64,000 bases of DNA. It comes from a plasmid. Below are positions 2,085 through 54,621 of this stretch, in pieces. The DNA lies in sequence record AP029161.1; one strand, 5' to 3'. The notes below the pieces were generated by a model. That model was not told where the DNA came from, searched no databases, and saw only the letters and a program-made list of their open reading frames with translations. Position 1 is the stretch's first letter, and every line of letters begins with the position of its first letter. Made by a program: the position numbers and the translations under genes.

Positions 2085-2129
2085 AATTAATCCTTTTTAT
2101 ATTGTAGTATTATATTTATTTGCCGCTGA

Positions 2130-3105: not shown

Positions 3106-3126
3106 AAATTATTTGGAGAAATTAAA

Positions 3127-3354: not shown

Positions 3355-3385
3355 TTAATTTAGATAATCAGAATGTAGGAATATC

Positions 3386-3652: not shown

Positions 3653-3895
3653 AGGATATTTCATGAATTCTGAAATTATAGTTATTTGTATATATTCTTT
3701 TCTCTTTTTACTTTATGTAGTTGCTCAAATAGTGTTTTTAGTAGGACTAAATGATATAAGAAAAATTTGTAGAAAGAGGAAATAATAGAAATGTTTTATC
3801 AAGACAATTTATGGCATTCGAGAAGAAAATTATGGACTAGTAGCAGCACTTTCAAAATTTTGCGAACTATATTCTAAAGACAAAAATCAAGAGCA

Positions 3896-4660
3896 ATGCT
3901 AATATTAGCATTGCTTACTAAGATTTATTATTTTGAAGGGAATTATATGAATTGCGTTAAAAATTCAAAGCTTCAAGAAAATTTAAATTACTTTACTGAT
4001 CATTTTTTAATTGTTGAATCGGATATTCATTTTGTAAAATCATTTTTATGCCGAAGAGAAAAAACAACCTCTTATGCATTTAGAGTTATATTTTCACAAA
4101 ACTATATAACTATTTATGGAGATATAGGTAATCTGTGCTTTAGTAATATCAATCATGATTTAAATGATAAAGACCCTTTGAATTGGCTTCTTTCAATCAA
4201 TAAAAGTAATATTGATTATTTAATGAGTAAAGTCCCTTTAGTATTCAAGTCTGCTGTTTTTGAGTTTTCAACTAATAAAGCATTAGAAAAACTTCGCGAA
4301 TTAGAATTAGATCTTGAAAATGAAATTAAGGAAGAAAAAGAGTTTGACGAAGATTTCGATTACTATGAAGATAAGATGTTTTTTCAAAGAGAAAATGAAA
4401 AAATAAAAGAGTATGAAGATAAAATTAAAAAAATACGAGTGCTTAAAAAGGACTTGATTGATTTATCAGAATTTGAGTTTGTTCAACGATATATCAATGA
4501 TTTAAACTTTACTAGCTTTACTGAAGGAGATATTTTTAAAGATTATACTAGCAATGCTTATATTACGGCGGCCGCTTTATTTAAATTCTGTGAATTATAT
4601 ATTGATTATAAAAATAATAAAATACAGTTTCAAAAGAATATTGCTAATAAACAAGCATAA
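3896..4660 (+). CDS. hypothetical protein (start possibly at internal Met 3947)
   Basis: ORF track. Confidence 0.4.
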   Translation: MLILALLTKIYYFEGNYMNCVKNSKLQENLNYFTDHFLIVESDIHFVKSFLCRREKTTSYAFRVIFSQNYITIYGDIGNLCFSNINHDLNDKDPLNWLLSINKSNIDYLMSKVPLVFKSAVFEFSTNKALEKLRELELDLENEIKEEKEFDEDFDYYEDKMFFQRENEKIKEYEDKIKKIRVLKKDLIDLSEFEFVQRYINDLNFTSFTEGDIFKDYTSNAYITAAALFKFCELYIDYKNNKIQFQKNIANKQA

Positions 4661-4688
4661 CAGATGTTTTAATTTGAAGGAGTAAATT

Positions 4689-5411
4689 ATGACTAAGGTT
4701 TTAATTTTAGATACTGAAACTACAGGACTCGATAAAAGATCTCATTCAATAGTTGAAGTTGCAGCTATTAGCGTTGATTTAAGGTATAAAAAAATTGAAT
4801 CACAAAGAGCTGGTTTAATTTACGCAGTAACTAATCTCGATTCTGAAAATTTAACTGGAATCACTCAAGAAATGCTTGATGGTGTTAAAAATGCTACTGA
4901 CGACCCATTTGATACAATAAAATTAATGGCTAACTATTGCGATTGCATTGTGGCTCATAATGCTGAATTTGATAAAGGATTCGTTGAAGCAAGAGGAATT
5001 ATTCTAAAGGGTAGGAACAATCTTCCTTTAGAATGGATTTGCTCTTATCGCGACCTTGAGTATGACCTTCCAACAATCAATAAAAAATTAGGGACACTTG
5101 CAGAGGCTTATAGCGTAAATTCAGGTGGAGCACATAGAGCATTAGCTGATGTTACTATGCTCGCTCAGGTCCTCTTTAAATTACCTAACATCGAAGAGCA
5201 AATTATTAGAGCAATTGAAAATAAGAAAAAGCCTGAGATAAAAATTATCTCGCTAGCACATTACGATAGAAAGGATGATGTAAAAAGGGCTGGCTTTAGA
5301 TGGGACCCACAAAATAGAATCTGGTGGAAAAGCATCAGAGCAGCTAATGAAAATGAATTAAGAAATATAATTGATATACTTGGGTTTGATGTGAAAATTT
5401 TAACTCATTAA
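4689..5411 (+). CDS. DEDDh 3'-5' exonuclease (DnaQ/epsilon-like) domain protein
   Basis: Motifs LDTETTGLD (Exo I), VAHNAEFDKGFV (Exo II), HRALADV (Exo III) in order. SD aaggag upstream. Confidence 0.75.
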   Translation: MTKVLILDTETTGLDKRSHSIVEVAAISVDLRYKKIESQRAGLIYAVTNLDSENLTGITQEMLDGVKNATDDPFDTIKLMANYCDCIVAHNAEFDKGFVEARGIILKGRNNLPLEWICSYRDLEYDLPTINKKLGTLAEAYSVNSGGAHRALADVTMLAQVLFKLPNIEEQIIRAIENKKKPEIKIISLAHYDRKDDVKRAGFRWDPQNRIWWKSIRAANENELRNIIDILGFDVKILTH

Positions 5412-5431
5412 TAATAATTTGAGGTTCAGTA

Positions 5432-5713
5432 ATGTTTGAATATTTAATATTAAATGATTATGAAATCAATAACAGAGTCCCAAGCAATGAAGATTGGGAA
5501 AAATATGGTGAATTCTTTAAATCAAATTGGTCTTCTGAAAATTTAAAAAATGTAGCACAAGAGTATTTTTCAAAAAAGCATGATGGAACAAATGATTTAT
5601 CCGAAAAAATCATATTTATAAAAGAAAATAAACTTTACTCAGAAACTAAAAAGTTTTCTGTAGAGGCAATACCTGTTTTAGAATTTCATGCTAGTGAAGA
5701 AGATTTAATATGA
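5432..5713 (+). CDS. hypothetical protein
   Basis: ORF track. Confidence 0.4.
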   Translation: MFEYLILNDYEINNRVPSNEDWEKYGEFFKSNWSSENLKNVAQEYFSKKHDGTNDLSEKIIFIKENKLYSETKKFSVEAIPVLEFHASEEDLI

Positions 5714-6132
5714 ATTTGAAGAAAAAAAATCGCAAAAGAAAAGAACTTACTGAACATCAAATTTTATCGATGAGTAGTGAAGAATGGCGTGCATATAAAA
5801 AAAGGCAATATCGAGCAAATAGAACTCCAGAGCAGCGAGAGAAAGAACTTGCTAAACGTAGGGTAAATAGACCTAAATTAAAAACAGGTAAAAAGGCTCC
5901 AGTTTGGTTTGTAGACTTATTAAAGCTTCCAAAGGGAAAATATTTAGCTAAAGATATTGCTAATAAATTAGGAATTTCAGACAGAAATTTGAAAATAGTT
6001 TTGCGCAAGAGAGGAATTGAACCAGCAGGAACTGAATTAATTGACGGCTATTATTGTGCGTATTATCTTACATCTCAATTTAAAAGTTTACCGAAAGAAG
6101 AAATTGAAGACGCTAAAGAAAAATTAAAATAA
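5710..6132 (+). CDS. basic Lys/Arg-rich hypothetical protein
   Basis: ORF track; 4-nt overlap with upstream gene. Confidence 0.45.
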   Translation: MNLKKKNRKRKELTEHQILSMSSEEWRAYKKRQYRANRTPEQREKELAKRRVNRPKLKTGKKAPVWFVDLLKLPKGKYLAKDIANKLGISDRNLKIVLRKRGIEPAGTELIDGYYCAYYLTSQFKSLPKEEIEDAKEKLK

Positions 6133-6136
6133 ATAT

Positions 6137-6445
6137 TTGACACTTTATTGTAAATATTTACTAGTCATGTTATTCTTTTATTTGTTGAATATATGGAGGT
6201 TTATCATGAACTTTATACAATTAGATTTATTTGGTTTAAGTGCAGTAGTAAAAAAAGTAATAGATAAGGTTTGCTACGAGTCCAGATATTTAATCGAAAA
6301 AGTAGGTGATATCTACTGCTGCTATGTTCAAAAAAGAAAAGGTAAAGGCCGTTGGTCTAAAAAAACTTTAGTTGATAAGTCAAAGAAATGTTTTCATATT
6401 GAATATGCTAGTAATGACTTGGGTTTAAAGTTAAAGGGTATTTAA
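6137..6445 (+). CDS. hypothetical protein
   Basis: ORF track. Confidence 0.3.
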   Translation: MTLYCKYLLVMLFFYLLNIWRFIMNFIQLDLFGLSAVVKKVIDKVCYESRYLIEKVGDIYCCYVQKRKGKGRWSKKTLVDKSKKCFHIEYASNDLGLKLKGI

Positions 6446-6706
6446 ATGTTCTTACATTCAAGAATATTTATTTTATCTTTATTTACTTCAATATTTTTAT
6501 CAACTATTTATTTAATAATTAGTTGCATAAAAGTCTCTTTTGATGTTCAACTTTTTAGACCTGACTATTTAAAATATTTATATTTTAATTTATTATTTTT
6601 TATACTAATTATTTCTTCAATTTATTCATTCGTGATATTTTGTAAAAGAAGAAGAGATAAAATAATTCTAAAAAATAGAAAAAAATTTAATGATGATTAT
6701 AACTAA
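6446..6706 (+). CDS. small membrane protein (two hydrophobic helices)
   Basis: Translation is mostly hydrophobic. Confidence 0.35.
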   Translation: MFLHSRIFILSLFTSIFLSTIYLIISCIKVSFDVQLFRPDYLKYLYFNLLFFILIISSIYSFVIFCKRRRDKIILKNRKKFNDDYN

Positions 6707-6725
6707 TTGAATTTAGGAAATATTA

Positions 6726-7049
6726 ATGGAAACAAAACACTCTGATAATGATGTAGATTATTTTGAAAATTTAACTAAAAAATATGATATTAATCCTTTG
6801 CTTTTTCATAAAGCTGTGAACGCTTTTCCAGAATTTATAGAAGCAATAAACCTAAGTGATGATCAAGCTAGGATCTGGGCTGAAAAACAGCAATATTCAA
6901 AAGCTTTAAGATTCTTTCTTAAAAGTAGATTTCCATTGGATTGGCAAAATATTGTGAATAAAATAATTAATAAAAATAATGAGCCTTTACTTGGAAATAA
7001 AGGAGAGATTCAAGTCGATATATTTACTGATAATGATAAATTGTCATGA
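6726..7049 (+). CDS. hypothetical protein
   Basis: ORF track. Confidence 0.4.
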   Translation: METKHSDNDVDYFENLTKKYDINPLLFHKAVNAFPEFIEAINLSDDQARIWAEKQQYSKALRFFLKSRFPLDWQNIVNKIINKNNEPLLGNKGEIQVDIFTDNDKLS

Positions 7050-7615
7050 GTGCATTTATTTTTGACAATTTTTACCGCTATTCTTCTATAATTAGTGCAT
7101 GGCCTGATGGCACATTTTTAATACCTCAAAGTACAGAAAAATACGATAAAAAATTAGATAAATACTTACGTGATAAATATTATTTAGAAGTATATTCCAA
7201 TAGCCCTTATTCTTACTTTATAAGTCCACACGAAAAAACATTAGAAAAAGCAGAAAGTAAAGCTTACAAGATATTCTTAAATTATTTGAATTGTAAAAAT
7301 CATGAATTTGAACGTCAAGATTATTTTAGAGGTACTGGAATTTGTCGTAAATGCGATTTATTTTCTTTTAATGCTTTTACACCTGTTTTTAGATGTGTAA
7401 TTTGCAATATTCCTACTGCTTATTGTCATGATGATGAATACAAATTTTATTGTGAGGGACACAAAGATCTTAATAAATCACAATACTTTGCTATCCTCCA
7501 AAACAATATGATGAGGTCTAAAAGATGTTATGAAAGGATTGCAGAAATAAATGATGAATATAATTTTGCACAATTTAATTATATGGTTGAGAGAATTTAC
7601 TTTGATAAAAGATAA
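7046..7615 (+). CDS. Cys-rich (zinc-finger-like) hypothetical protein
   Basis: CRKC..CVIC..C..CEGH cluster. Confidence 0.4.
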   Translation: MSAFIFDNFYRYSSIISAWPDGTFLIPQSTEKYDKKLDKYLRDKYYLEVYSNSPYSYFISPHEKTLEKAESKAYKIFLNYLNCKNHEFERQDYFRGTGICRKCDLFSFNAFTPVFRCVICNIPTAYCHDDEYKFYCEGHKDLNKSQYFAILQNNMMRSKRCYERIAEINDEYNFAQFNYMVERIYFDKR

Positions 7616-8959: not shown

Positions 8960-10060
8960 TCATTTTATAAACCGACTATACAGCTCTGATATTTTTCCAC
9001 CGCTTTGAAGAAAAAATGAATTTTTTTCGTTGCTATTTTCATGAATAAAATATTTGTATTTGTTTGTCTTATTTTTAAAATCATTTTTTAACTCATACTC
9101 AGCATCTTCTCTTGAATCAAAGTACTCAATAAATTCTGAAATATTTTCTACTCCGTGCTGAGGATAGGTTGAGTTAATCATTTCCAAAAAAAGATGTTTT
9201 AAAGAATTATTAATATAAAAATAAGAAGATACATATTCTCTTCTATAATATTTACTTTCATCTTTTTTAACCTGCAAAATAGAAGGAAGAGGAATGCCAA
9301 ACCTACCACCATCACACCATACCAAAATCAATTCACCAATTTTGGTTTCTTTGTATTTAATTGTTAAAATGTCGGTGTAAGATTTCTGATCGTTAAAAAC
9401 TAAAACCCAATTTTCAAAATATTCTCTATTAAATTTACTTTTCTCAGAAATTATTGAAAAATTAGGATCTGGTTCATAATAAAAATGCAGTTTAGTATCA
9501 TTTACATAATTGTATTTCCAATTATTTTTATCTTTAAGATAAGTCATTATTTTTTCATTTGGAGTTTTGTCGATATTAAATCTTTCACGGTACATGTCTT
9601 CTATTTGTTTAGGAGTTGCGCTTCCATTCTTTGGTGTATTGCTGCTGCCAAGTCTCGTGTAAACTACACCTGCTCTAATTGTATCTTTTCCTTGACCATA
9701 GTCTTGCGTTAGAAAATAAGGTTTATGATTTATGTTTTGAATTTGAATAATATCTATAGGATTATCTCTGTAATTTAAAGCAAATAACTTTATATTAGGA
9801 AGATTATTTAATCTTGCATTTTTTACTAAGTCCATTAAGTCATTTTCTTTTTTTCTCTTAATATCATTTTTAATATCAAAGAAATTTTTATCGTCATCAA
9901 CGCCAAAAATAAGATATTTATACTTGCTATCAGTTTTTGAATTTGCAAGACATAATATGTCATGAATTAAATCTGAATTATTTTTATGATATTCTCTTTT
10001 AAAATCTATAAATTCACATTCTTGATTATTAATCAATTGCTTAATTTCTTCGTGATTCAT
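8960..10060 (-). CDS. AlbA_2 / Schlafen-like (divergent AAA) DNA-binding domain protein
   Basis: N-terminal pattern EFIDFKREY..LANSK..YLIFGVDDD typical of the AlbA_2 domain. The C-terminal ~200 aa are unassigned. Confidence 0.55.
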   Translation of the reverse strand: MNHEEIKQLINNQECEFIDFKREYHKNNSDLIHDILCLANSKTDSKYKYLIFGVDDDKNFFDIKNDIKRKKENDLMDLVKNARLNNLPNIKLFALNYRDNPIDIIQIQNINHKPYFLTQDYGQGKDTIRAGVVYTRLGSSNTPKNGSATPKQIEDMYRERFNIDKTPNEKIMTYLKDKNNWKYNYVNDTKLHFYYEPDPNFSIISEKSKFNREYFENWVLVFNDQKSYTDILTIKYKETKIGELILVWCDGGRFGIPLPSILQVKKDESKYYRREYVSSYFYINNSLKHLFLEMINSTYPQHGVENISEFIEYFDSREDAEYELKNDFKNKTNKYKYFIHENSNEKNSFFLQSGGKISELYSRFIK

Positions 10061-13825: not shown

Positions 13826-13896
13826 TAATTTTACTAACTAAACGTTTAAATTTAATTTGTATATAGTTCCACTAATTTAATTTATAAGTAAACATT

Positions 13897-14550
13897 TTAG
13901 TTGAACATTCTTCCAGTTTTTTGAATATTTTTTTCTACTTCTTTTGCCTGAAGTGCTAATTGTTCAATTATTTCTTGATGAGGTCTATTTTTAAATTTAT
14001 CTATTACAGCTCTTCGTTCAGGATTATCAGGTGGTAGAACAGTTAGTATAACAGCTGCCATATTCTCCATATTTCCTTCTAATTGCTTAACCTTTTCCTC
14101 TAACTTAGATACTCTTTCAACATCTGCTTTATCGTTAATTTTAACATCCAATTTTGTAATGTCTTCAACTGTTGCAACTGTTGATCTAGAAAGTCTCTCT
14201 CTATTTATGTAGTTCAAAACGCCCGATGATGGAGCAAAGTAATTTTTTTTGTAAATGAAATTTGGATCATTAGGTTTAACTTTCCAAACTAAAACTCCTT
14301 TAAGTATAAGTTTCTCCCTTAGCGAATCAAAAGATTGTCCTTCTGAAATTAAACCAGCTCTTTCAAAATCATGTCGATAAAGCAAAACAAATTCTCCATC
14401 TCTTTTTTCTAATGGAGCTTCAACAAAAGCGTTTAGTAAAAAATGAGCTAGTTTCGATGCACTTTCAATTTTTTTTCTTCGTAAAAATTGTTCCAAGCTT
14501 CCATAGACCTTATATTTACCATTTACAGCCATGTTACTTCGTCCTTCCAT
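13897..14550 (-). CDS. putative replication initiator (Rep). Assignment is by context only.
   Basis: Gene lies immediately downstream of the iteron array and upstream of parS-parAB. The protein itself has no recognisable motif, only a C-terminal coiled coil. Confidence 0.35.
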   Translation of the reverse strand: MEGRSNMAVNGKYKVYGSLEQFLRRKKIESASKLAHFLLNAFVEAPLEKRDGEFVLLYRHDFERAGLISEGQSFDSLREKLILKGVLVWKVKPNDPNFIYKKNYFAPSSGVLNYINRERLSRSTVATVEDITKLDVKINDKADVERVSKLEEKVKQLEGNMENMAAVILTVLPPDNPERRAVIDKFKNRPHQEIIEQLALQAKEVEKNIQKTGRMFN

Positions 14551-14670
14551 AGTAGATAAATGACTAGGAAAAATATTACCATTTCATTTTTTTTTGGTCT
14601 AGCGTAGTTAGTTAATTTCTGACTGTGAGTAATGTAACATTCGCTAATTTAAATGTTGTTACTATGGATT

Positions 14671-14843
14671 TACTACGAATTTACTACGCTATAATTTTAA
14701 GCTACTACGAATTTACTACGCTAAAGTAACAGATCGTAGTAAATTCGTAGTATGAAATTTTAATAACTATTTAATATTATTAAAAATACTAGTTTATGAG
14801 TGCGTAGTAAATTCGTAGTAAATTCGTAGTAAATTCGTAGTAG
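14671..14843. repeat. iteron-like array of TACTACGAATTT (11-12 bp period) repeats
   Basis: Two direct 19-mers TACTACGAATTTACTACGC, one inverted copy, then 3.5 tandem inverted units CGTAGTAAATT. Confidence 0.65.
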
Positions 14844-15242
14844 ATTTTTTTTAAAAGGTGCTATTTTATTAAATAAGTCTGCTATAGTAATGTACGGAAA
14901 AACACCTATGCTCAACGATTAGGGCAACATCAAAAAAATACGATCCCAATGATATTTTGAATCGATGTAGCTTGTGTCCGCAGTTTAAGCAATCTGAAAA
15001 TTAAAAATTTGTGGGCGGCCACATGGTGCGAAATTTTCTTTGAAAATTATCGCACCTATCTTATCGCTAGTACAAGCATGTTAGTACTAGCGTCTTGTAG
15101 TCATGATCCTAGAAAAAAATAGTCGCCAGAGTATTTTAAACTTATAGTAAGTGAGATTTTAAAAATAGATGTTCCAATAGTCATCAGATTTTTTAATGAG
15201 CCTTAAAACGGCTTAAAATGATTTTGTTTATTTTTTATGCAT

Positions 15243-15671
15243 TTAGCGTTTTTTTAAAACAAGTTCCCATTCATAGCCCAGACCTTCAACGACTTTATTA
15301 AACGTAGAAATAGAAGGTTCACGCTTTCCATCTTCGTATTGTGAATAAGATGTTTTTGCGCAATTCAATTTGTCGGCAATTTTAGATTGTGAGAAATGTT
15401 CTTTATTCCTAATACTTTTGAATATTGTGGATGTAGCTAGTTTGAAGTTTTTAAACTTAATGTAAAATCGAACATCATCAACAATTTCAAGAGTAAAATC
15501 ATCATCCTTAAATTTTTCTTTCGAATTACAATTGAACATTAAAAGTAATCGATTGTTTAGTTTGCTAAAAAGATCTTCAACATCAGCCGTAGAGATTTCT
15601 AAAACATCAAGCAGTTCAATTTTTGCAATCCATCGTTCATTTTTAAAATAGTATTGGCCTTCCAAGTTCAT
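15243..15671 (-). CDS. XRE-family HTH repressor (CI-like) with C-terminal HTH
   Basis: SQSKIADKLNCAKTSYSQYEDGKREPSISTFNKVVEGLG helix-turn-helix. Lies divergent to the 15731 gene with a palindromic operator between them. Confidence 0.6.
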   Translation of the reverse strand: MNLEGQYYFKNERWIAKIELLDVLEISTADVEDLFSKLNNRLLLMFNCNSKEKFKDDDFTLEIVDDVRFYIKFKNFKLATSTIFKSIRNKEHFSQSKIADKLNCAKTSYSQYEDGKREPSISTFNKVVEGLGYEWELVLKKR

Positions 15672-42273: not shown

Positions 42274-42915
42274 ATGGATGCTGTTTTTGATAAAATTTTT
42301 AAAAATGGAATTTTAAACAAATATAAGGTTGAGCGAATTACAGGACGTGAATATTGGGATATTTTTTATCGAGAATTTGAGCAAGATAATCTTCAAAAAA
42401 TAACTTTCATTAGAGAAGGACTTCTCACTGAAGAGCAGAAAGAAAAAAGAAAATCTTTAGAAGAAAGATATAAGTCTGAAAAAATTGAAAATTACATTGT
42501 TGTAAAAGATGGTGATTTAAATATTGCTTTGTTTAGAGGTGAACAAAAAGATATCGATATTTATTACATGCGACATGCAATTGTTAGAAAAGAATATCGT
42601 GGAAAAGGAATTTATAACGATTACCTAGATAAGATTATAGAATACGCAAATGAGCGTGGATTCTTACAAATTATAAGCTGTTTTGTTTTGTCCAACATAG
42701 ATATTTATCGAACTAAAACAAAAAAAGATTTTTATATCACAGCAACCGAAACTCATGCTGAATGGGGACAAATTGGGTGGCTATGTAAATTCCTAAATGA
42801 AGATTTAAGAAAAGCTTTTCTTTTTAGATGTGGGAATATCGAATTTTCTAAAAAGCTTTATAATAATTCTGAAAGAAGCGCAAATAGCTTTATAAAATTT
42901 CTAAACGGATTTTAA
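42274..42915 (+). CDS. GNAT-family N-acetyltransferase
   Basis: Acetyl-CoA motif IVRKEYRGKGIYNDYL. Confidence 0.5.
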   Translation: MDAVFDKIFKNGILNKYKVERITGREYWDIFYREFEQDNLQKITFIREGLLTEEQKEKRKSLEERYKSEKIENYIVVKDGDLNIALFRGEQKDIDIYYMRHAIVRKEYRGKGIYNDYLDKIIEYANERGFLQIISCFVLSNIDIYRTKTKKDFYITATETHAEWGQIGWLCKFLNEDLRKAFLFRCGNIEFSKKLYNNSERSANSFIKFLNGF

Positions 42916-44009: not shown

Positions 44010-45614
44010 TTATTCATATATTTCTTTAATAAAATCTTTAAATGCTTCAGCTATTTCATATAGAGTAATACTACTATTTAATTCACTTTTTTGATGAAGA
44101 ATTTCTTGATTTAAATTTAAAATTTTATTTGATTGTTCAATAATTTTTTCTACACCAAAATTTTTTAAATTATCTTTATTTATAAATAAAATCATCATCC
44201 AATTATATATATTTACATACTCAATTTTACTAAATATTGATTCAATTTTATACTCCCTGTAAAATTCATTTAAAACAAACTCTCTAAATAGATAATATTC
44301 TACAGGAAAACCAAAGAAATTACATTTTTTATGATATACAATAGTGATAAAGTAGAGTTCTTTAAATTTTAAATAGTGATCGAAATTTTCTTTTACTATG
44401 TTATTAATTAAAGAATTCCAAAAATTATGAATTATACTTTGATTATTAAAATCTTTAAGATTTGTATCTCCTAATCTTAGATGGTTACATAAAACCTTTA
44501 AATTTTCTTCTAGTTCAAATTCATTTAAATGTATTTTTTTGGAAATTCTCCTTATTAAATCATTTAAAGTATTAAATTTTACTAGCATACTATAGCTATG
44601 GTAATCAGAATTGCTATTATTTAAATTAAAATATAGCATAAATTCAAAGTAATCAATTATTTCTATAATCTCTCTTGTGCTAAATATTTTTAAAAACTTA
44701 AGCTCATCAGGAAGAGATTTTGTTTCATTTAAAATAAATGGAAACATGTTGTTATTAATTTTTTTATGCAAAATATTATTTAATATCTCAGGAATTATAT
44801 CTAATTGAAAATATTTCGCATTTAATTTTTCGATCATTTCAATAGCATTGTTTTTATTGTCATTTTTCGAGTATCCAAAGGGGACTATGTATTTTCTCCT
44901 GTATCTGAGTAAATTTGATAATAAGGCCCAACGGTCTTCTTCTTTTAATGAACTTCGATCAAGATCATCTAAAATTATTACTTTAATTTTGTTATCGTAC
45001 CATAATTCAATAGATTCAAAAAAACAATTATAAATGTATGATATTTTTAATTTATTTGTTGCAAAAATAAAAGGAATAATTAAAAAAATGAAATAAATAA
45101 TTGTACTGTATGATGAATAATCAAAACCGACAATTTTTTTAAAATATAATTCATTATAAAATATAATCAAAATTGATAATATAAAATAATAAATGGAAAA
45201 AAATATTTTCCAGTGTTTTGGTGCTATATGTGAATACGCTTCATCTAAAGTAGAAATTCCAAAAAAAGAAATTTTCTTTTTATAATATCTACTATTCAAG
45301 CATAATTCATGAACTACTCTATCTGAAAGAGCGGATTTACCCGCACCCCATTCACCAATTATAAACACTGTTTTATTATTTCTATCTAAAAAAGCTTTAA
45401 TTTCACTAATTTTATTAGTATGATATTTGAATTCTATAAAATCCGAAGGAGTATTATTTTTATCTATTTCATTCCAAAATAGATAAAAAGATTCTTTCAA
45501 TATTTCATAGTATGTATATATGTTAAAAATTCTTTTGATTTTATTAGTACAATTATCTTTTAATTTAATATATTTTTCAGATTTTATCATACAAATTATT
45601 TCACCAGTGTACAC
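44010..45614 (-). CDS. KAP-family P-loop NTPase
   Basis: Walker A GEWGAGKSAL and Walker B VIILDDLDR are separated by two inserted TM helices (FFSIYYFILSILIIFY and IIYFIFLIIPFIFA), the hallmark of the KAP family. Confidence 0.7.
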   Translation of the reverse strand: MYTGEIICMIKSEKYIKLKDNCTNKIKRIFNIYTYYEILKESFYLFWNEIDKNNTPSDFIEFKYHTNKISEIKAFLDRNNKTVFIIGEWGAGKSALSDRVVHELCLNSRYYKKKISFFGISTLDEAYSHIAPKHWKIFFSIYYFILSILIIFYNELYFKKIVGFDYSSYSTIIYFIFLIIPFIFATNKLKISYIYNCFFESIELWYDNKIKVIILDDLDRSSLKEEDRWALLSNLLRYRRKYIVPFGYSKNDNKNNAIEMIEKLNAKYFQLDIIPEILNNILHKKINNNMFPFILNETKSLPDELKFLKIFSTREIIEIIDYFEFMLYFNLNNSNSDYHSYSMLVKFNTLNDLIRRISKKIHLNEFELEENLKVLCNHLRLGDTNLKDFNNQSIIHNFWNSLINNIVKENFDHYLKFKELYFITIVYHKKCNFFGFPVEYYLFREFVLNEFYREYKIESIFSKIEYVNIYNWMMILFINKDNLKNFGVEKIIEQSNKILNLNQEILHQKSELNSSITLYEIAEAFKDFIKEIYE

Positions 45615-48768: not shown

Positions 48769-49767
48769 ATGGATACACAACGTCAGTGGAACGATTCTAA
48801 GAATCAGAAAACACCAATAATAAGTGAAAAAGACTTAAAGGAATTATCAAAAAGATATTCTGAATATTCAATTGAAAAATTAGATGCTTTACTCAAAACA
48901 ATAATTGTAAAAGAAGTTACACTAGCTGAAGTAGAAGCTTTTTTATACATTGCTAAACAATCTGGATTATGTCCATTCAAAAAACAAATTCAGCTAATAG
49001 ATTTTAAGGGAACTAAAAGACCATATACTACTATAGATGGCTTTAGAGTATTGGCTGAAAGAAGTTCGCAATATGTAGGTCAGACAACTCCATTATTTTG
49101 TGGGAAAGATAAAATATGGACTGAAGTATGGACGGAAAATACTCCGCCACTTGCAGCTAAAGTGGGAATTCTTCGTAAAGGATTTTTGGAACCTATTTTT
49201 GCTATTGCAAAATATTCTTCGTACAACAGCGATACTCCTACTTGGAAAAAAATGCCAGATGTCATGTTAGCAAAATGCGCTGAAGCATTAGCTTTTAGAA
49301 AAACATTTCCAGATAATATGTGTGGTTTATACACACTTGAAGAAATGACTCAAGCATCTAGTGAATTTAGTAATGAAATTGAATCACAAAATACAGAAAT
49401 AAAATCAATTACACCTAAGAGTAAAAAGACAGAAATTATTTCGGATGTGATTGAAGTTAAAACAGAACCTGAAAAAATAGTTAGTGTTCCTGAAGATGTT
49501 GTTAAAGCTAAAAATAGTTTAGAAAAAAAAGTGCAGTCTATAGACTGCAATGAAGATTATGAAGCCGTTTATAATGGCTGCGATGTACACAGAAGAAAAT
49601 TATGGGATTTATTTAGGGAGTTAAAAATATTTTCAGAAGTAAAAAATGACCCTAAAAAAACCGTTGAAGTATCTAAATATTTTGCAGAAAGATGCTTTGG
49701 CGTGCCACTTAATCAATTGCAAGAACATTTATTATCGCTGCAAGAAGAATATTTAAATGCTTGTTAA
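48769..49767 (+). CDS. recT: RecT-family single-strand annealing recombinase
   Basis: TIDGFRVLAERS..WKKMPDVMLAKCAEALAFRKTFPD..GLYTLEE core. Confidence 0.8.
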   Translation: MDTQRQWNDSKNQKTPIISEKDLKELSKRYSEYSIEKLDALLKTIIVKEVTLAEVEAFLYIAKQSGLCPFKKQIQLIDFKGTKRPYTTIDGFRVLAERSSQYVGQTTPLFCGKDKIWTEVWTENTPPLAAKVGILRKGFLEPIFAIAKYSSYNSDTPTWKKMPDVMLAKCAEALAFRKTFPDNMCGLYTLEEMTQASSEFSNEIESQNTEIKSITPKSKKTEIISDVIEVKTEPEKIVSVPEDVVKAKNSLEKKVQSIDCNEDYEAVYNGCDVHRRKLWDLFRELKIFSEVKNDPKKTVEVSKYFAERCFGVPLNQLQEHLLSLQEEYLNAC

Positions 49768-50057
49768 AATGGTAGTCAATTTCGAGTCGTAAATTTTTAG
49801 GTTTCCTATATGTATTATATAATTTTGAATTTATTAATAATAATTTTTAGCAATAAAAAAATTTTAAAAATTTAATTTATAATGAAATATATTATTTATT
49901 TCTCAAGTATTATAGATGTATTCTTTATATTATTGATAGTAAAGTTTTTTATGCTAATTTATCTTGAATTAGTAGATTTTTTATATAATATAAATTAATA
50001 CCATATATTTGTATGGTTCTATAAATTGTCCTTATTATTAAAAAAGGAACTTTATTA

Positions 50058-50294
50058 ATGTTTGTATTATTTGAAAAACTATTACGTAAAATTTATGGGA
50101 TAAAAGAAAATGAATTAAACATAATTTCTGTAAGTAAAGATAAAGATGAAAATATAGTAGTAGAATATAAAGAAACAATAAGTAGAGTAGTATATAAAGA
50201 TAAACTGAAAAACTTAGAGCTCAATACTAAACAAAATATTGATATAAAAAAATGTAGTGCAAAGCTAATTTCAAAAAATTTAGATTTAGAATAA
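50058..50294 (+). CDS. small hypothetical protein
   Basis: ORF track. Confidence 0.3.
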   Translation: MFVLFEKLLRKIYGIKENELNIISVSKDKDENIVVEYKETISRVVYKDKLKNLELNTKQNIDIKKCSAKLISKNLDLE

Positions 50295-50308
50295 TAGAAG
50301 GAGTAGAT

Positions 50309-51502
50309 ATGCAAAATAATAGAAATAATTTGAGTAATCCGAAATATTTATGGTTCTTTGTAATGTCATTTACAGTAATTATGATTTTTGCGAATTGGTT
50401 TGATCCCAGACTAATTTTAATTCCTTTTTTTAATTTAGAAACTGATGCTGGAACTTTAATCTTTCCACTTACATTTTTAGTTTCAAATATCATTACAGAA
50501 GTATATGGATACAAACATGCCAGAAAAGCTATTTGGTGCGGCTTTGGATTTAATTTATTTGGCCTCTTATTTGGCCAGTTACTAATACATTTTCCTTCTC
50601 CAATTTATGCTGATAATGTAGCTTTTGATTCTGTAATTAAAAAAAGCTCGATTATTGTAATTGCTTCAATGATTAGCTATCTTGTTTCAGAGCCATTAAA
50701 CTCATATATAATGTCCAAAATGAAAATTAAATTTAAAAATTTAACTGCTTTGAGATTTGTAATGTCAACTTTTTTTGCTGCATTTGTTGATTCTATTGTT
50801 TTTACAGCGATAGCATTTTCTTGGTACTTAAAAATTGAAGACTGTGTAAAATTAGCTTTAACTATGTGGATGTTAAAAGTTTTAATTGAATCAATTGGTA
50901 CATTATTTTCTGTTAGGCTAACAAATTACTTAAAAAATAAAGAAAGAATAGATATTTATGATCGAAAAACAAAATTCAATATATTTAGTTTAAACACAAA
51001 TTACACTACTGAAGATAATGAATACAAAAATAATTTATCAAGTATAAACTCAGAAAACAATACTGAATATTATATAACAAATGATTTAACTGAAAAAGAA
51101 ATTGAAAGCTCATGGAATTTAGTAAAAAATTGTTTTTGGTCTGAAGAGATTCCTTACGTTAAGTTCAAAAGTGCTTTAAATAATTCATTAAATTTTTGCA
51201 TTGTTAATGTAAATTCGGGTCATATATGTGGGTTTGGAAGAGTAATAACTGATTACTACACTTATGCATATTTATGCGATGTCGTGATTCATCCTGAATA
51301 TAGGAAAAAAGGATTAGGAAATATATTAATTGACAATATTTTAAATCATAAGGATTTACAGGGATTGAAAACTATAAATTTACGTACAACTAAAGAAGCT
51401 AAAAAAATATATATTAAAAATGGTTTTAAATTAGCAAAAGATCCTGAATATATTTTAGAAAAAGAAGATTTAAATATTTATAAAAAATTTAAGGCAGTTT
51501 AA
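50309..51502 (+). CDS. fusion protein: N-terminal Vut_1/YhhQ queuosine-precursor transporter domain, C-terminal GNAT acetyltransferase domain
   Basis: FPLTFLVSNIITEVYG, FVDSIVFTAIAF and MWMLKVLIES resemble YhhQ. C-terminus has HPEYRKKGLGNILI GNAT motif A. Confidence 0.65.
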   Translation: MQNNRNNLSNPKYLWFFVMSFTVIMIFANWFDPRLILIPFFNLETDAGTLIFPLTFLVSNIITEVYGYKHARKAIWCGFGFNLFGLLFGQLLIHFPSPIYADNVAFDSVIKKSSIIVIASMISYLVSEPLNSYIMSKMKIKFKNLTALRFVMSTFFAAFVDSIVFTAIAFSWYLKIEDCVKLALTMWMLKVLIESIGTLFSVRLTNYLKNKERIDIYDRKTKFNIFSLNTNYTTEDNEYKNNLSSINSENNTEYYITNDLTEKEIESSWNLVKNCFWSEEIPYVKFKSALNNSLNFCIVNVNSGHICGFGRVITDYYTYAYLCDVVIHPEYRKKGLGNILIDNILNHKDLQGLKTINLRTTKEAKKIYIKNGFKLAKDPEYILEKEDLNIYKKFKAV

Positions 51503-52151
51503 CCTTAATTATTTCTCCAAGTATTTCATAATTTATATTTAGCTCTTCGATCTGAGAAGATTCTTTATCAATACTGCCTAACAAAATTCTTTTTCCATTA
51601 ATCAAAATTCTTTTTAATGATATTTTATCTTTATATTTAATAGCACAAATTGTATCATTTTCAGGTTTTTTATTAATATTTACAAACCAAATTGAGCCTT
51701 CATTAAAAATAGGTTTTATAAAATCATCAAATTTAAAGCCAAATATCTTATCGTTTATATATTTTATATCAATATCAGTATCAGTGTAAAACAAAGCTTC
51801 TTTTGAATCAGAAGGACTATAAACTGGAATATTTTTCAGTGTTTTCTTTGGAATAATACTAACATCTTCAGTGTAAATTTTCTTGACTCCTAGAATATCA
51901 TCAAGTGAAATATTATACCCATTATTTTGAAAATAATTAGCAATTTTTTTCAAAACCATTTTAGAAATGTATTTCGTTTTTTTTGTTTCATCATTACTTA
52001 ATAAACGATAAAAAACAGATGAAGAAACGTCTATAGCCTCAGCCAAAGCATTTAAAGAAAAATTAGAGTCTTTATCTTTTTTTAAATTTATTAATTTAAT
52101 TATCTGATTTTGAATATGATGCGTATTTTCGACGCTGTCCCACGCTGCCAC
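51489..52151 (-). CDS. CI-like HTH transcriptional regulator
   Basis: N-terminal HTH LNALAEAIDVSSSVFYRLL. C-terminal domain lacks clear S24 catalytic residues. Confidence 0.45.
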   Translation of the reverse strand: MAAWDSVENTHHIQNQIIKLINLKKDKDSNFSLNALAEAIDVSSSVFYRLLSNDETKKTKYISKMVLKKIANYFQNNGYNISLDDILGVKKIYTEDVSIIPKKTLKNIPVYSPSDSKEALFYTDTDIDIKYINDKIFGFKFDDFIKPIFNEGSIWFVNINKKPENDTICAIKYKDKISLKRILINGKRILLGSIDKESSQIEELNINYEILGEIIKVKLP

Positions 52152-52279
52152 GACATCTCTCCTAAATTTTTAAAATTATATTGCTAAAAAAATCGTTATG
52201 CTTTATAAGCATATTCAACACTTAGCATTATCAAGGAGATAAGTGAAGTGGTTTAAAAAAAAAGAGGCGCACATTTTGA

Positions 52280-53584
52280 ATGCACACCACTACCGCAAAT
52301 AGAATGTATCTCAAATGTGCACAAAAATCAAATATTTCGCACAGGGAGAGCTACGTGTCTGATTTTATTATGTCAAATGCTTACCAAAAATCCTCCAAAA
52401 CCAGAAAAACATACAAAAATAAATTAATTTTAAGACCGATGAAAGAGGGTTATACGCTTGGGCATGCTCAAAAAGAAGCTTATAATGGTGGACGCTCATT
52501 AAGAGCGATTTGGTCAAATTCGAGTTTAAAGCCAAATCAAAAATTAGTGTTGTTGTGTCTTGCGTCCCACTTAAATTTCAAAAATACTTTTAAAGCTTGG
52601 CAGAAAATTTCTGCAAAACAAATTGCAAGTGAAACGCAATTTGGAATTCGTACTATCCATTCTATTTTAGCTGATTTAGTAAAAAATGGTTATTTGTTAA
52701 AAAAACAAAATTTTTCAAGCAAAACTTTTTTACAAGAAGAAAATAGTTATTGTTTATCAGATAAGCTTTTTGATGAGCATGTTATTTATTTGCAAAAAAG
52801 TTTTATCCCCAAGCACGATGAGCACGTTAAAGAATTTAAGCAACAAAAATTTGCAAAAAAGAGTTATATACCTTCTGCAAAACCTGCAGAGGCGGTAAGC
52901 AAAGCCTGCAACCCTGCCTTGCAAGATTCGCAAGCCGCCATTGCAAAACCTGCAGACGTTTTTCCTCTTGTATTTTCCCCTAATTTTCTCCCTTTAAATA
53001 ATTCCATGTGTGGTGAAAATAAATCACACACAAAAAATGAACATAAAAATAGCAAAAATTTAAAACAGGCAAGTATTATTGTTTGCGAGTTGCTTAAGCA
53101 TAAATTAAATAAACGCTTTATCCCAAATTTTGAATGTGAGGGCATTATAGAAAGGTCAATAAGCAAGCTTAATATTATTGATATTAAGATAATCTTAGAC
53201 TTTTGTAAGGAAGCAATCTCTAATCCCAATTACAAGAAGATTAACAGTTATGAAAATATTGAAGTTATTTTCATTCAAGAGCTTGAAAGTTTCATTAATG
53301 ATAAAAATTATATTTCAAATTTCAGAATTTCAGATCATAAAGAAATAAAAACGGAGATAATTAAAGCTGAACCTCTTGCAGAAAACAAAACTCAAACTGT
53401 AATAGAAGAATATCCTGAACCATTCAAATCATGGTTCAAGACGCTCAACGAAACAACAAAAAATACTATTCGAAAAGAAATAAAAATTCATGGCAGAGTT
53501 AAATTTTTTAACTTAATCCTTCCATCCGTAAGAGCTTATAAATCCTTTATAGAGCAATTAGACTCAGAAAGAAGGGCTGCATGA
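52280..53584 (+). CDS. putative phage replication initiator (winged-helix N-terminal region). True start is probably downstream of 52280.
   Basis: NQKLVLLCLASHLN..ISAKQIASETQFGIRTIHSILADLVKNGYL winged-helix-like. Confidence 0.35.
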   Translation: MHTTTANRMYLKCAQKSNISHRESYVSDFIMSNAYQKSSKTRKTYKNKLILRPMKEGYTLGHAQKEAYNGGRSLRAIWSNSSLKPNQKLVLLCLASHLNFKNTFKAWQKISAKQIASETQFGIRTIHSILADLVKNGYLLKKQNFSSKTFLQEENSYCLSDKLFDEHVIYLQKSFIPKHDEHVKEFKQQKFAKKSYIPSAKPAEAVSKACNPALQDSQAAIAKPADVFPLVFSPNFLPLNNSMCGENKSHTKNEHKNSKNLKQASIIVCELLKHKLNKRFIPNFECEGIIERSISKLNIIDIKIILDFCKEAISNPNYKKINSYENIEVIFIQELESFINDKNYISNFRISDHKEIKTEIIKAEPLAENKTQTVIEEYPEPFKSWFKTLNETTKNTIRKEIKIHGRVKFFNLILPSVRAYKSFIEQLDSERRAA

Positions 53585-53841: not shown

Positions 53842-54030
53842 TTTTTTTCGTATTTTACCACTACCTGATGGTAAAATACCCTTAAAAAAAGTCAGACAAA
53901 AAAATCGACACATGAGATTTTTTAAATTACATTTTTATCAGAACCCTTTTATAAAATCGTTCCTTTAGGAATAGCCGAAGTAAAAAGTAAAAGGGTTCAC
54001 AAGAAACCATTCCCTTTGGGAGTACCGAAA

Positions 54031-54621
54031 ATGCAGAGTATTAAGATAATTAATACCTCTAATAATGAGGTATTTTATGCTACTGAAAAATCAGTAGGAT
54101 TTGATATTGCAGCGGATGAAAGTGTTTTAATTTTACCGCTGCAAGTTAAAAAAATAAAAACTGGCTTAAAATGGAAAATAGAAGATAATTCTGAATTAAT
54201 AAGCATAAAAGAGGCTGCTAAATTAGTTAAATGCTGCACCTCAACAATCCATCGACAATGTAAAAAAGGTAGGCTTAATTTTGAAAAAATAGATGGAGTT
54301 TATTTTATAAATAAGGATCATCTTTTATCGTATTTTAATAATGAAGAAATAATCGATTTACCTGAAAAATATGAGCTTCAAATAAGACCTAGAAGCTCCT
54401 CACTACTAAAAGAAAAACTTCATATACAAATAGGAACAATTGACCCTGATTACACTGGTGAAATTTGTATTATCGCACAAAATATTTCTTTTAAACCAAA
54501 ATTAATTTTAAAAGGGGAGCGGATTGCTCAAGGAATAATATCGAAAGTTTGTTTAGCTGAAAACGTATTTAGTAGAAATATAATTAGAAACAATAATGGT
54601 TTTGGGAGTACTGGAAAATGA
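54031..54621 (+). CDS. dut: dUTPase with ~50-aa HTH-containing insertion between motifs I and II (start revised to the ATG at 54031)
   Basis: All five dUTPase motifs present (VGFDIAA, RPRSS, GTIDPDYTGE, RIAQG, NNNGFGSTGK). Insertion ISIKEAAKLVKCCTSTIHRQCKKGRL is excisionase/MerR-like HTH. Confidence 0.65.
   Translation: MQSIKIINTSNNEVFYATEKSVGFDIAADESVLILPLQVKKIKTGLKWKIEDNSELISIKEAAKLVKCCTSTIHRQCKKGRLNFEKIDGVYFINKDHLLSYFNNEEIIDLPEKYELQIRPRSSSLLKEKLHIQIGTIDPDYTGEICIIAQNISFKPKLILKGERIAQGIISKVCLAENVFSRNIIRNNNGFGSTGK

Follow-up and report, generated by a model that had tools for sequence, protein, structure and literature searches.

The locus considered here raises the question of whether a mobile element encodes, in one polypeptide, an importer of queuosine precursors and an acetyltransferase and, if so, where such a protein came from and on what the acetyltransferase would act. 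The DNA analysed is a stretch of 64,000 nt from a plasmid (sequence record AP029161.1), which is called the window below. The original prediction, made from the sequence alone, read positions 50309..51502 as a single-ORF fusion of a YhhQ-type transporter with a GNAT acetyltransferase, encoded by a phage. Both parts of this reading were borne out: the ORF is as described, with Pfam detecting Vut_1 and three GNAT models in it, and its carrier is a tailed phage with ParA/ParB (Pfam). The GNAT motif quoted in that prediction, HPEYRKKGLGNILI, was located at residues 328-341 (nt 51290-51331). The gene is a single ORF with an ATG start and a strong RBS (GAAGGAG) 7 nt upstream, and it encodes one inner-membrane protein in which a six-helix transporter is followed by a cytoplasmic tail, a linker and a C-terminal GNAT domain. 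The parts of the gene and its immediate neighbors are:

49770..50057, no strand assigned: AT-rich ORF-free stretch, a possible promoter or operator region (GC content)
50058..50294, plus strand: 78-aa ORF directly upstream of the fusion gene (ORF list, AAGGAA RBS)
50309..51502, plus strand: whole fusion gene, a 397-aa Vut_1/QPTR transporter plus GNAT (ORF list, Pfam, NCBIfam, contigs of other studies)
50345..50908, plus strand: six-helix membrane core, Vut_1/QPTR domain, residues 13-200 (Pfam, TIGR00697, hydropathy, AF2)
50909..51025, plus strand: conserved cytoplasmic tail after TM6, residues 201-239 (alignments A1, A2 and A6)
51026..51079, plus strand: linker, residues 240-257 (alignment with separate YhhQ C-termini and GNAT N-termini)
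51080..51499, plus strand: cytoplasmic GNAT domain of an XCC2953-like clade (Pfam, phmmer, AF2, Foldseek)
51489..52151, minus strand: regulator with an HTH and an S24-like domain; it converges on the fusion gene, with which it shares 14 nt (Pfam Peptidase_S24, HTH_26)

The linker of about 18 residues stands, in an alignment, where the separate-gene form has a stop codon and an intergenic gap. No chromosomal relative that could be retrieved has the halves in one gene, as would be expected if an assembly or sequencing frameshift had joined two genes here. Several observations speak against such an artefact. A 2549-nt contig from run X1, probably the source sample, has 0 differences from the window across 50041-52200. 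Low-depth contigs from three other studies, about 90-97% alike, show 0 indels across the domain junction (nt ~51026-51079), which they cross at 50865-51160 (X7), 50958-51126 (X3), and 50852-51072 plus 51067-51236 (X4). The identical fusion protein is recorded on 2 contigs, and the same architecture recurs in two diverged full-length relatives, P0002 and P0003. The artefact is thus largely refuted, its residual likelihood being close to negligible, and the single gene holds. In the contigs from other studies all of the variant sites listed in the Vut_1 part (8/8) are synonymous, which indicates purifying selection on this part. No RNA data set is among the sequencing runs listed as carrying the sequence.

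The transporter half matches Vut_1 (PF02592) at residues 46-201 (E 3.8e-38, 131.7 bits against a cut-off of 27.2; Pfam) and the NCBIfam family TIGR00697, "queuosine precursor transporter", at residues 19-201 (83.6 bits against 50.95). The E. coli-type YhhQ equivalog NF008406/PRK11212, in contrast, yields just 25.6 bits against a cut-off of 252. By these model scores the transporter is of a different subfamily of the YhhQ family than E. coli YhhQ itself, and its substrate is an extrapolation because it falls so far below the cut-off of that model. The C-terminus of E. coli YhhQ, a protein with six TM helices, has been validated by experiment as cytoplasmic (PMC5372724); this transporter imports preQ0 and preQ1, and the homologue from Chlamydia trachomatis imports queuine (PMC5372724, PMC11130926). 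In the fusion protein six hydrophobic segments, with K/R-rich loops at residues 66-74, 127-146 and after 200 (hydropathy, positive-inside count), likewise predict six TM helices and a cytoplasmic C-terminus, and the AF2 model of the full-length protein has a pLDDT of 91-98 for 10-residue blocks from residue 11 to 220. A PDB sequence search with the Vut_1 half gave nothing useful.

The fusion protein thus shares with QPTR/YhhQ proteins (COG1738) the Pfam and TIGR families, the predicted topology and relatives clustered with QueC, but it differs from them in possessing an extra conserved cytoplasmic tail (DIYD...FSL...Y...N) and the C-terminal GNAT domain, and in having, in place of a riboswitch, an adjoining homologue of a protein regulator. 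The conserved positions of the tail (K209, E212, DIYD 215-218, S227-L228, Y232 and N237) form columns that are invariant in alignments A1 and A2 (9 rows each) and partly so in A6 (60 rows). A close architectural parallel is offered by the QPTR-bTGT fusions, in which a Vut_1 transporter is also covalently linked to a cytoplasmic enzyme; there, however, the partner is a tRNA-guanine transglycosylase, bTGT, which acts on the imported base, whereas here it is a GNAT (PMC11130926).

The GNAT half is detected by three Pfam models (PF00583, PF13508, PF13673) at residues 258-377 with E values from 1e-12 to 2e-10, all above cut-off. Motif A of GNATs, which binds the pyrophosphate of acetyl-CoA, has the form R/Q-x-x-G-x-G/A and is present as RKKGLG (residues 332-337, nt 51302-51319); the conserved Tyr lies in KIYIKNGF (51404-51427). 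AF2 modeling of residues 243-397 from 61 rows gives a pLDDT of 94.2 and a pTM of 0.87. In the full-length model, on the other hand, block means of pLDDT are 40-53 over residues 351-397, and the arrangement of the domains is unreliable because a mere three rows cover the GNAT part; its inter-domain geometry was accordingly not interpreted. The closest solved structure is that of XCC2953 from Xanthomonas campestris (PDB 2OZH; phmmer E 5.8e-18; Foldseek E 1.2e-10, 32% identity), with which the domain shares FxRVI(S/T)DxxT(F/Y)AYLxDV and RxxGxx motifs. Unlike the fused domain, XCC2953 is a standalone soluble protein of 142 aa; being a structural-genomics target, it gives no functional clue. Next in the Foldseek ranking come small-molecule amine N-acetyltransferases (rice serotonin N-acetyltransferase, GNA1), and the PDB matches listed with a named function are GNAT-type acetyl/acyltransferases. 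Taken together, the retained motif A and Tyr, the confident predicted fold and the amine N-acetyltransferase neighbors make this GNAT look active. Longer relatives in its clade are fused to deaminase, racemase, HisA/F-like, PNPOx, NUDIX and other domains, with Vut_1 in 0/29, and as these partners are unrelated to each other the clade has no fixed substrate theme.

The two full-length relatives mentioned above are each 398 aa long and are 43 and 42% identical to the fusion protein over their length. In both, motif A has been lost (EDKSLE for RKKGLG) along with the C-terminal part of the domain, and the ORF stays open at full length; what is left is still homologous to GNAT (hhalign probability 97.8%). 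Given these losses, catalysis must be dispensable in at least the P0002/P0003 lineage. This, the very long branch of the pair in the GNAT tree (3.28 changes per site) and a chromosomal yhhQ-GNAT pair at locus L086 whose separate GNAT copy is pseudogenised (in-frame TAA and TAG) would be in keeping with a GNAT that modifies no substrate and serves as a regulatory or structural appendage, for example a sensor of acetyl-CoA that gates transport, a module for docking, or a remnant in decay. We consider this rather unlikely for the window copy, which retains motif A and the conserved Tyr on a short branch (0.087) and folds with high confidence; the separate chromosomal GNATs, too, keep motif A or near variants of it.

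These chromosomal GNATs bear on the origin of the fusion, which was missed earlier: the two halves occur as separate adjacent genes in Coxiellaceae-like (Gammaproteobacteria) MAG chromosomes. At loci L082, L085 (=L004), L089, L099 and L005 (cut at a contig end) a yhhQ gene is followed by a GNAT gene in a different frame, with the GNAT 43-49% identical to the fused domain; at L097 a C-terminal GNAT with 27% identity lies inside a larger protein. The pairing of Vut_1 with GNAT is restricted to 7 distinct loci among 158 Vut_1-related loci. In the GNAT tree the three fused domains form one clade (SH-aLRT 95), which together with four yhhQ-adjacent GNATs and three others makes up a wider clade of 10 of the 64 rows (support 96). 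The Vut_1 tree unites the window protein, P0002, P0003, P0004, P0005, P0006 and the Vut_1 of locus L001 in a single clade (98). The trees of both domains hence fit an origin of the fusion from a neighboring yhhQ-GNAT gene pair.

The fusion itself is rarely encountered. Scans of viral, genome and metagenome contigs with the single protein returned no relative, and relatives emerged from alignment-based rescans. Megablast of 49000-53000 gave no match among plasmids and phages; among 50,697 phage records just three contain a relative, at 28-29% identity, and the GNAT half finds no match in these three. The ESM Atlas holds no large cluster with both domains, and a search with the GNAT region among proteins of 218-695 aa, relying as it does on shared words, returned the fusion protein alone. 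One mixed alignment of Vut_1 and GNAT rows (A5) was discarded, as its GNAT rows fell on the membrane domain.

A survey of the 158 loci, with up to 10 kb of flank fetched on each side, places the chromosomal genes in a recurrent cassette comprising an HTH-S24-like regulator, an ORF of about 100 aa, Vut_1, and then either GNAT or QueC. A regulator homologue lies beside Vut_1 in 23/158 loci and the small ORF in 24/158; QueC shares the locus in 15/158, nine of which also have the regulator. Twelve of these 15 QueC proteins are 60-100% identical to the one at locus L133, where the QueC start lies 16 nt past the end of the Vut_1 gene. The window resembles this cassette in having a regulator homologue together with a Vut_1 of the same broad clade, and its GNAT stands where other loci have QueC. 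The regulator homologue is the product of 51489..52151, which had been labeled "cI-like" and is 31% identical to the cassette regulator of L089 (E 8e-26); its kinship with the cassette had likewise gone unrecognized. The differences are that in the cassette the regulator is upstream and on the same strand, whereas in the window it is downstream and convergent, as in L001, and that the window lacks QueC, has its GNAT fused, is carried by a phage-plasmid and has a small ORF without detectable homology to that of the cassette.

Some GNAT-bearing cassettes (L086, L097) also include a SAM methyltransferase and another Vut_1, which would fit modification of small molecules. One such scheme is detoxification, wherein the importer would admit toxic amine analogues (7-deazapurine antibiotics or similar) that the GNAT neutralises on entry, and the domain does show weak likeness to the ArsN2 and AAC(6')-Ia families (NCBIfam; E 5e-6 and 2e-5, far under their cut-offs). 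However, no specific resistance family scores above its NCBIfam cut-off, and nothing links the cassette to antibiotic gene clusters. We know of no such amine-bearing toxin for this host, and regard detoxification as improbable.

Zallot et al. propose YhhQ subfamilies of differing specificity (PMC5372724), the Pfam family is named "putative vitamin uptake transporter", and the E. coli-type model is missed by a wide margin; in line with these points, the "queuosine precursor" label might be over-propagated and the protein might import another compound (a nucleobase, a pterin/folate-like molecule or a vitamin) on which the GNAT then acts. Tgt and full QueC are both present in 4/5 genomes with the yhhQ-GNAT pair, so these four make preQ0 themselves and are not salvage-dependent, which also speaks for this alternative. 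Against it stand the TIGR00697 score above the cut-off, the sharing of the locus by QueC and Vut_1 relatives, down to the short gap in L133, and the presence of Tgt in 5/5 of the genomes tested. We therefore consider a different substrate unlikely, and uptake by the lysogen of a 7-deazaguanine that serves as a queuosine precursor (preQ1, preQ0, queuine or 7-carboxy-7-deazaguanine) probable, though by extrapolation from family membership and gene context.

The original prediction had also hinted at manipulation of 7-deazaguanine metabolism by the phage. Of this, an indirect link survives through the QueC genes beside Vut_1 relatives, but a role in modifying phage DNA found no support in the window. 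DpdA/TGT (PF01702, at E<=1e-3), QueC/D/E and FolE were sought in 77 window ORFs with Pfam and in 49 ORFs with PHROGs, and none was detected; tblastn with the L133 QueC against the 64-kb window likewise produced nothing at E<=1. It is nonetheless conceivable that a DpdA-type enzyme places a 7-deazaguanine in the phage genome and that the fusion protein furnishes this base, perhaps in acetylated form. There would be precedent for an N-acyl derivative, since phage DNA is reported to contain N-methyl and N-formyl dPreQ1. Phage-borne YhhQ homologues are known from a survey (Hutinet et al. 2019; PMC6884629), and Enterobacteria phage CAjan, a tailed phage with a Vut_1 transporter like the present one, carries its yhhQ inside a dpdA/folE/queCDE DNA-modification cluster (PMC7544227). 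None of those genes was detected in the 64-kb window, deletion of yhhQ in CAjan left the modification as it was (PMC7544227), and the closest relatives of both halves of the fusion are chromosomal cassette genes, all of which makes supply for DNA modification very improbable.

Instead, the fusion gene appears to be cargo of host origin. It sits between the RecT (recombination) and replication-initiator genes, and from this position we take it to be an accessory gene with no core phage function. Gene fusion together with a conserved adjacent gene pair is a classic sign that two proteins act in the same pathway; hence a precise and cheap hypothesis follows, namely that the GNAT acetylates preQ1 or queuine, altering Q-tRNA. 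The reading that we favor overall, tentatively and at somewhat less than an even chance, is that of a host-derived cargo which imports a 7-deazaguanine precursor and bears a tethered cytoplasmic GNAT. The fused gene and the homologue of the cassette regulator travel together on the phage-plasmid, and the transporter would take up the precursor into the lysogen. As the C-terminus is predicted to be cytoplasmic, the GNAT would lie at the inner mouth of the transporter, where acetyl-CoA is available, and could N-acetylate what is imported or a small amine much like it. Import might in this way be coupled to trapping, storing or diverting the base, and the likely pay-off for the element would be control over the host's queuosine-precursor pool. 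The most obvious candidate for acetylation is preQ1, which bears a primary aminomethyl group; that it is the actual substrate is possible but doubtful.

Queuosine-precursor salvage as known consists of transport followed directly by the action of Tgt. The fusion hints at an acetylation step and is not proof of one; the literature on queuosine-precursor transport and phage 7-deazaguanines, as far as the portions available to us go, describes none, and "acetyl" has 0 occurrences in the main text of PMC11130926 and PMC5372724. On a bolder reading, which we deem a decidedly unlikely one, 7-deazaguanine metabolism includes a step not yet described, the import-coupled N-acetylation of preQ1 (or queuine), of which the fusion and the gene pair are the signature. 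The acetylated 7-deazaguanine could then be a trapped storage form, a decoy that denies the base to Tgt or to DpdA enzymes encoded by rival phages, or a new modified base inserted into tRNA or DNA. Sensing would fall to a dedicated, non-cleaving repressor of the S24-like kind, in the role usually played by a preQ1 riboswitch. The locus also shows that temperate phage-plasmids can carry as cargo a regulator-plus-importer cassette, presumably for a tRNA-modification micronutrient, which bears on the tuning of translation by mobile elements in very AT-rich hosts. Were the acetyltransferase unrelated to 7-deazaguanines, the finding would shrink to an unusual but ordinary domain fusion. In 11 large ORFs the NAU share is 0.86 for Asn, 0.84 for Asp, 0.73 for His and 0.75 for Tyr, so that in this 27.6%-GC replicon the NAU codons read by queuosine are the prevalent ones.

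As to the surrounding DNA, the fusion gene had been said to follow the AT-rich stretch 49770..50057. The stretch is real, with 15.6% GC against 27.6% for the whole window, but the 78-aa ORF with its own RBS, which had been overlooked, intervenes. It ends 14 nt ahead of the ATG of the fusion gene, and its place relative to the transporter gene is that of the ~100-aa ORF in the cassette. It has no Pfam, PHROG or PADLOC match, and its candidacy as a homologue of the cassette small ORF found no support (hhalign probability 1.2% against a 5-row profile). PADLOC gave no match for the fusion protein, the regulator or the small ORFs. In the AT-rich stretch Rfam, preQ1 riboswitches included, has no family at E<=1, nor does it detect a preQ1 riboswitch in the window; promoter-like hexamers number 18 against 22.7 expected from shuffles.

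A PDB search with the single regulator sequence gave nothing useful, whereas its profile has weak matches to UmuD, cI and LexA (E 0.012-0.95). In a 16-row alignment of the regulator (A8) K181 is nearly invariant, whereas no Ser is conserved on the upstream side of the P147/F149 motif. A loss of the S24 nucleophile was considered on the basis of this missing Ser and of the position at which we presume the GDSM motif to lie, and was set aside. A hammerhead-like Rfam match inside the regulator gene is sub-threshold (E 0.13) and was taken as chance. Upstream of the regulator gene, two terminator-like matches overlap each other on the minus strand (52266-52288).

The window carries a single open reading frame of 397 amino acids in which a Vut_1 (YhhQ-family) transporter is joined to a GNAT acetyltransferase domain, as the original prediction had proposed. 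In Pfam, Vut_1 covers residues 46-201 (E 3.8e-38) and residues 258-377 match three GNAT models, each over its cut-off; residues 240-257 form a linker (domain junction at nt ~51026-51079), and residues 328-341 correspond to the GNAT motif singled out earlier (core RKKGLG, 332-337). Of the NCBIfam models, TIGR00697 ("queuosine precursor transporter") is matched at 83.6 bits (cut-off 50.95) and NF008406, the E. coli-type YhhQ equivalog, at just 25.6 bits (cut-off 252). The gene is preceded by the ribosome-binding site GAAGGAG, 7 nt 5' of the start, and lies in the following surroundings:

48769..49767: RecT, flanking the fusion gene on one side
49770..50057: AT-rich stretch, 15.6% GC versus 27.6% window-wide
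50058..50294: 78-aa ORF with its own ribosome-binding site, between the AT-rich stretch and the fusion gene, ending 14 nt before the fusion ATG
50309..51502, plus strand: Vut_1-GNAT fusion gene, one ORF, ATG start
51489..52151, minus strand: HTH-S24 protein, overlapping the fusion gene by 14 nt
52280..53584: replication initiator, after the HTH-S24 gene

The AT-rich stretch, earlier regarded as a possible module boundary, is indeed poor in GC, but it does not directly precede the gene because the 78-aa ORF intervenes. Neither a preQ1 riboswitch nor any other Rfam family gave a significant match in 49600-52400.

That two genes were wrongly joined by an assembly or sequencing artefact is excluded for practical purposes. 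A 2549-nt contig from run X1 matches 50041-52200 with zero differences, and as X1 is probably the source sample it is not independent support. Low-depth contigs from three further studies, ~90-97% alike, bridge the domain junction without an indel:

50958-51126: X3 (sludge) contig, spans the junction, no indel
50852-51072 and 51067-51236: X4 (wastewater) contigs, no indel
50865-51160: X7 contig, spans the junction, no indel

Of the variant sites listed, all 8 that fall in the Vut_1 half are at third codon positions and leave the amino acid unchanged. A protein identical to the fusion is recorded on two contigs, and the related proteins P0002 and P0003 (398 aa; 43 and 42% identical over their full length) are diverged but equally built. 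The junction-spanning contigs and this shared architecture speak against the artefact, and the two-domain gene is real. It is also rare: relatives occur in 3 of 50,697 phage records at 28-29% identity, none of which covers the GNAT half, and no ESM Atlas cluster of at least 50 members joins Vut_1 and GNAT. The literature, as far as its accessible portions go, yielded no account of a Vut_1-GNAT fusion or yhhQ-GNAT pair; "acetyl" is absent from the main text of both PMC5372724 and PMC11130926, and Table S1 of the latter, which reports a fusion of the transporter family (QPTR) to bacterial Tgt, could list more fusions.

The origin of the fusion can be traced among 158 loci with relatives of the Vut_1 half, collected by alignment-based scans (L004 and L085 are one contig). 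In L082, L085, L089, L099 and L005 (the last with the pair truncated where the contig stops) there is a Vut_1 gene of 246-254 aa and, a few bases to ~180 nt beyond it, a separate GNAT gene in a different reading frame, whose ~145-175-aa product is 43-49% identical to the C-terminal domain of the fusion. The pair is also present in L086, with its GNAT disrupted by in-frame TAA and TAG, and in L097 a GNAT with 27% identity forms the C-terminus of a 290-aa protein. The linker of the fusion occupies the place of the stop codon, short intergenic gap and GNAT start of the separate forms (fused '...NEYKNN-LSSINSENNT-EYYITNDL...' versus separate '...NEYFKNE*' and 'M..DYYIT...'), and these sequence comparisons indicate derivation from an adjacent Vut_1-GNAT gene pair. 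In a quick IQ-TREE analysis of the GNAT domain (64 rows, SH-aLRT support, no bootstrap) the three fused domains are monophyletic (support 95) and fall within a clade of ten (support 96) that also holds four yhhQ-adjacent GNATs, P0121, P0125 and the C-terminus of P0122, with the other 54 rows outside. A FastTree phylogeny of Vut_1 (157 rows) groups the window protein with P0002-P0006 and L001 (support 98), with a Legionellales, Coxiellaceae and Neisseriaceae group as sister. Both groupings are compatible with, without proving, a single fusion event in this lineage.

Modeled alone with AF2 (61 rows), the GNAT domain attains a pLDDT of 94.2 and a pTM of 0.87. The closest structure is 2OZH (XCC2953, no known function; phmmer E 5.8e-18, Foldseek E 1.2e-10), followed in Foldseek by rice serotonin N-acetyltransferase and GNA1. 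Its clade comprises 362 representatives (E<=1e-10) in a set of 1.84 billion; most stand alone, at ~140-160 aa, and elsewhere the domain is joined to many unrelated ones. Vut_1 was present in 0/29 of the longer relatives scanned. A non-catalytic GNAT is a rival reading on which the fused proteins themselves bear in different ways. The window domain retains RKKGLG and the Tyr of KIYIKNGF; in P0002 and P0003 the C-terminal domain is homologous (hhalign probability 97.8%), with motif A replaced by EDKSLE, an unalignable C-terminal part and a branch of 3.28 changes per site.

Hydropathy reveals six membrane segments in the Vut_1 half, and the K/R-rich loops (66-74, 127-146 and beyond residue 200) predict that both termini face inward. 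Six TM helices are likewise reported for E. coli YhhQ, whose C-terminus has been placed in the cytoplasm by experiment (PMC5372724), so the GNAT of the fusion is expected, by analogy, on the cytoplasmic side, with access to acetyl-CoA. The full-length AF2 model (60 rows, of which just 3 cover GNAT) has a mean pLDDT of 82.7, with block means of 91-98 across the membrane core (residues 11 to 220) and of 40-53 at residues 351-397, in the part with 3 rows. The cytoplasmic tail after TM6 (50909-51025) has conserved K209, E212, DIYD 215-218, S227-L228, Y232 and N237 in alignments A1, A2 and A6, and recurs throughout the clade of Vut_1 proteins of Legionellales, Coxiellaceae and Neisseriaceae type; this conservation could reflect a docking or regulatory motif.

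The HTH-S24 protein of the window is 31% identical (E 8e-26) to the product of the gene just upstream of the L089 pair, and such regulators lie beside Vut_1 in 23/158 loci, including L085, L089, L097, L099, L107, L110, L118, L133, L151, L153 and L157. The same-strand order is nearly always regulator, ~100-aa ORF, Vut_1. The small ORF, found in 24/158 loci and always between the S24-like regulator and Vut_1, has invariant positions that include YLGL, KRH and LG.A.G..A..L, and no Pfam or PADLOC match:

L089, 5685-5993: small ORF
L085, 1181-1471: small ORF
L086, 152-439: small ORF
L099, 5658-5960: small ORF
L097, 5684-5977: small ORF

The 78-aa ORF of the window holds this position, but hhalign detects no homology between the two (probability 1.2%). 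The slot 3' of Vut_1 has three occupants: GNAT, another Vut_1 paralogue (accompanied in some cases by a SAM methyltransferase, L086 and L097) and QueC. QueC shares a locus with Vut_1, within flanks of at most 10 kb on each side, in 15/158 loci, starting 16 nt past the Vut_1 end in L133; 12 of the 15 QueC proteins have 60-100% identity to that of L133, and 9 of the 15 loci also have the regulator. The flanks of L089, L099 and L133 contain mostly ordinary chromosomal genes (P5C reductase, SDR, hybrid histidine kinase, nucleoside phosphorylase), in L133 also a VirB4-type ATPase and a Schlafen/AlbA_2 protein, and no phage structural, packaging or lysis genes.

Across 16 aligned regulators the expected S24 nucleophile position has no conserved Ser, K181 is nearly invariant, and profile matches to UmuD, cI and LexA are weak; tentatively, the regulator may thus be a non-cleaving repressor. 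The family may be ligand-sensing and stand in for a preQ1 riboswitch. As it is tied to Vut_1 loci, the "cI-like" gene of the window (51489-52151) may not be the immunity repressor of the phage.

Both Coxiellaceae MAGs have, near the yhhQ-GNAT pair, a second standalone GNAT and a PNP_UDP_1 nucleoside phosphorylase (L089:7333-8361, fused to Cupin_5; L099:3546-4283), which may mark a wider nucleobase-salvage neighbourhood. Eight Legionella and Fluoribacter loci (L106, L116, L117, L119, L121, L122, L126 and L152) gave long match spans, and no regulator or GNAT homologue was found in them; L106, the one inspected, has tandem Vut_1 paralogues of 329 and 250 aa with a 4-nt gene overlap. In L001, a 104,899-bp metagenome contig, Vut_1 and the regulator are convergent as in the window; it also encodes a 2004-aa single-chain RNA polymerase beta/beta-prime fusion, near a family A DNA polymerase (1176-7190 and 13846-15525), a RES/Xre toxin-antitoxin pair and the Vut_1-regulator pair, and probably belongs to a mobile element such as a large phage.

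The chief worth of the find lies in gene-fusion evidence, which points to this GNAT clade acting together with a queuosine-precursor transporter. That the Vut_1 half imports a 7-deazaguanine precursor is fairly likely, judging from the TIGR00697 match, from QueC as a neighbour of relatives and from Tgt, which 5/5 genomes with the Vut_1-GNAT pair encode. Against this, the protein is remote from E. coli YhhQ and 4 of the 5 genomes encode a full QueC; the rival is a transporter for some other substrate. The tethered GNAT might acetylate the molecule that enters, or one closely related to it, with preQ1 as the obvious amine-bearing candidate; we regard this step as doubtful, with detoxification as a competing role, and the fusion makes it cheaply testable. 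The element would benefit through control of the host's Q-precursor pool, which fits the dominance of NAU codons (in 11 large ORFs they account for 73-86% of the codons for Asn, Asp, His and Tyr), a bias presumably shared by the host.

YhhQ homologues on phages have been described (Hutinet et al. 2019, PMC6884629; Kot et al. 2020, PMC7544227). In phage CAjan yhhQ lies inside the dpdA cluster, and its deletion left modification unchanged (PMC7544227); in contrast, the window has no DpdA/Tgt, FolE or QueC/D/E among 77 ORFs scanned with Pfam or 49 with PHROGs, and tblastn with QueC found no match. The suggested link to phage DNA modification is hence not supported by what could be seen.

By Pfam and PHROGs the window is tailed phage throughout (small and large terminase, portal, major capsid, tail sheath-like protein, tape measure, baseplate, M15 endolysin), with ParA/ParB, two replication-initiator-like proteins, RecT, Gam-like and SSB proteins, and no integrase detected in the 64 kb. 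The fusion gene is host-derived cargo of a phage-plasmid, travelling with a homologue of its regulator. Beside the terminase genes, a Schlafen/AlbA_2-domain protein (8960-10060, minus strand) gives a match to PDC-S50, a candidate defence family in PADLOC (E 1e-78). A 534-aa protein (44010-45614, minus strand) with no PADLOC match and a weak nSTAND3 NTPase match (E 1.6e-4, under the Pfam cut-off) could be a STAND-type protein of the phage, serving in defence or regulation. A 201-aa protein (54016-54621, plus strand) combines an excisionase-like HTH_17 and a dUTPase domain in one chain, and a second GNAT-like protein, unrelated to that of the fusion (42274-42915, plus strand; Acetyltransf_1, E 2.3e-4), is encoded directly after the M15 endolysin and spanin-like genes.
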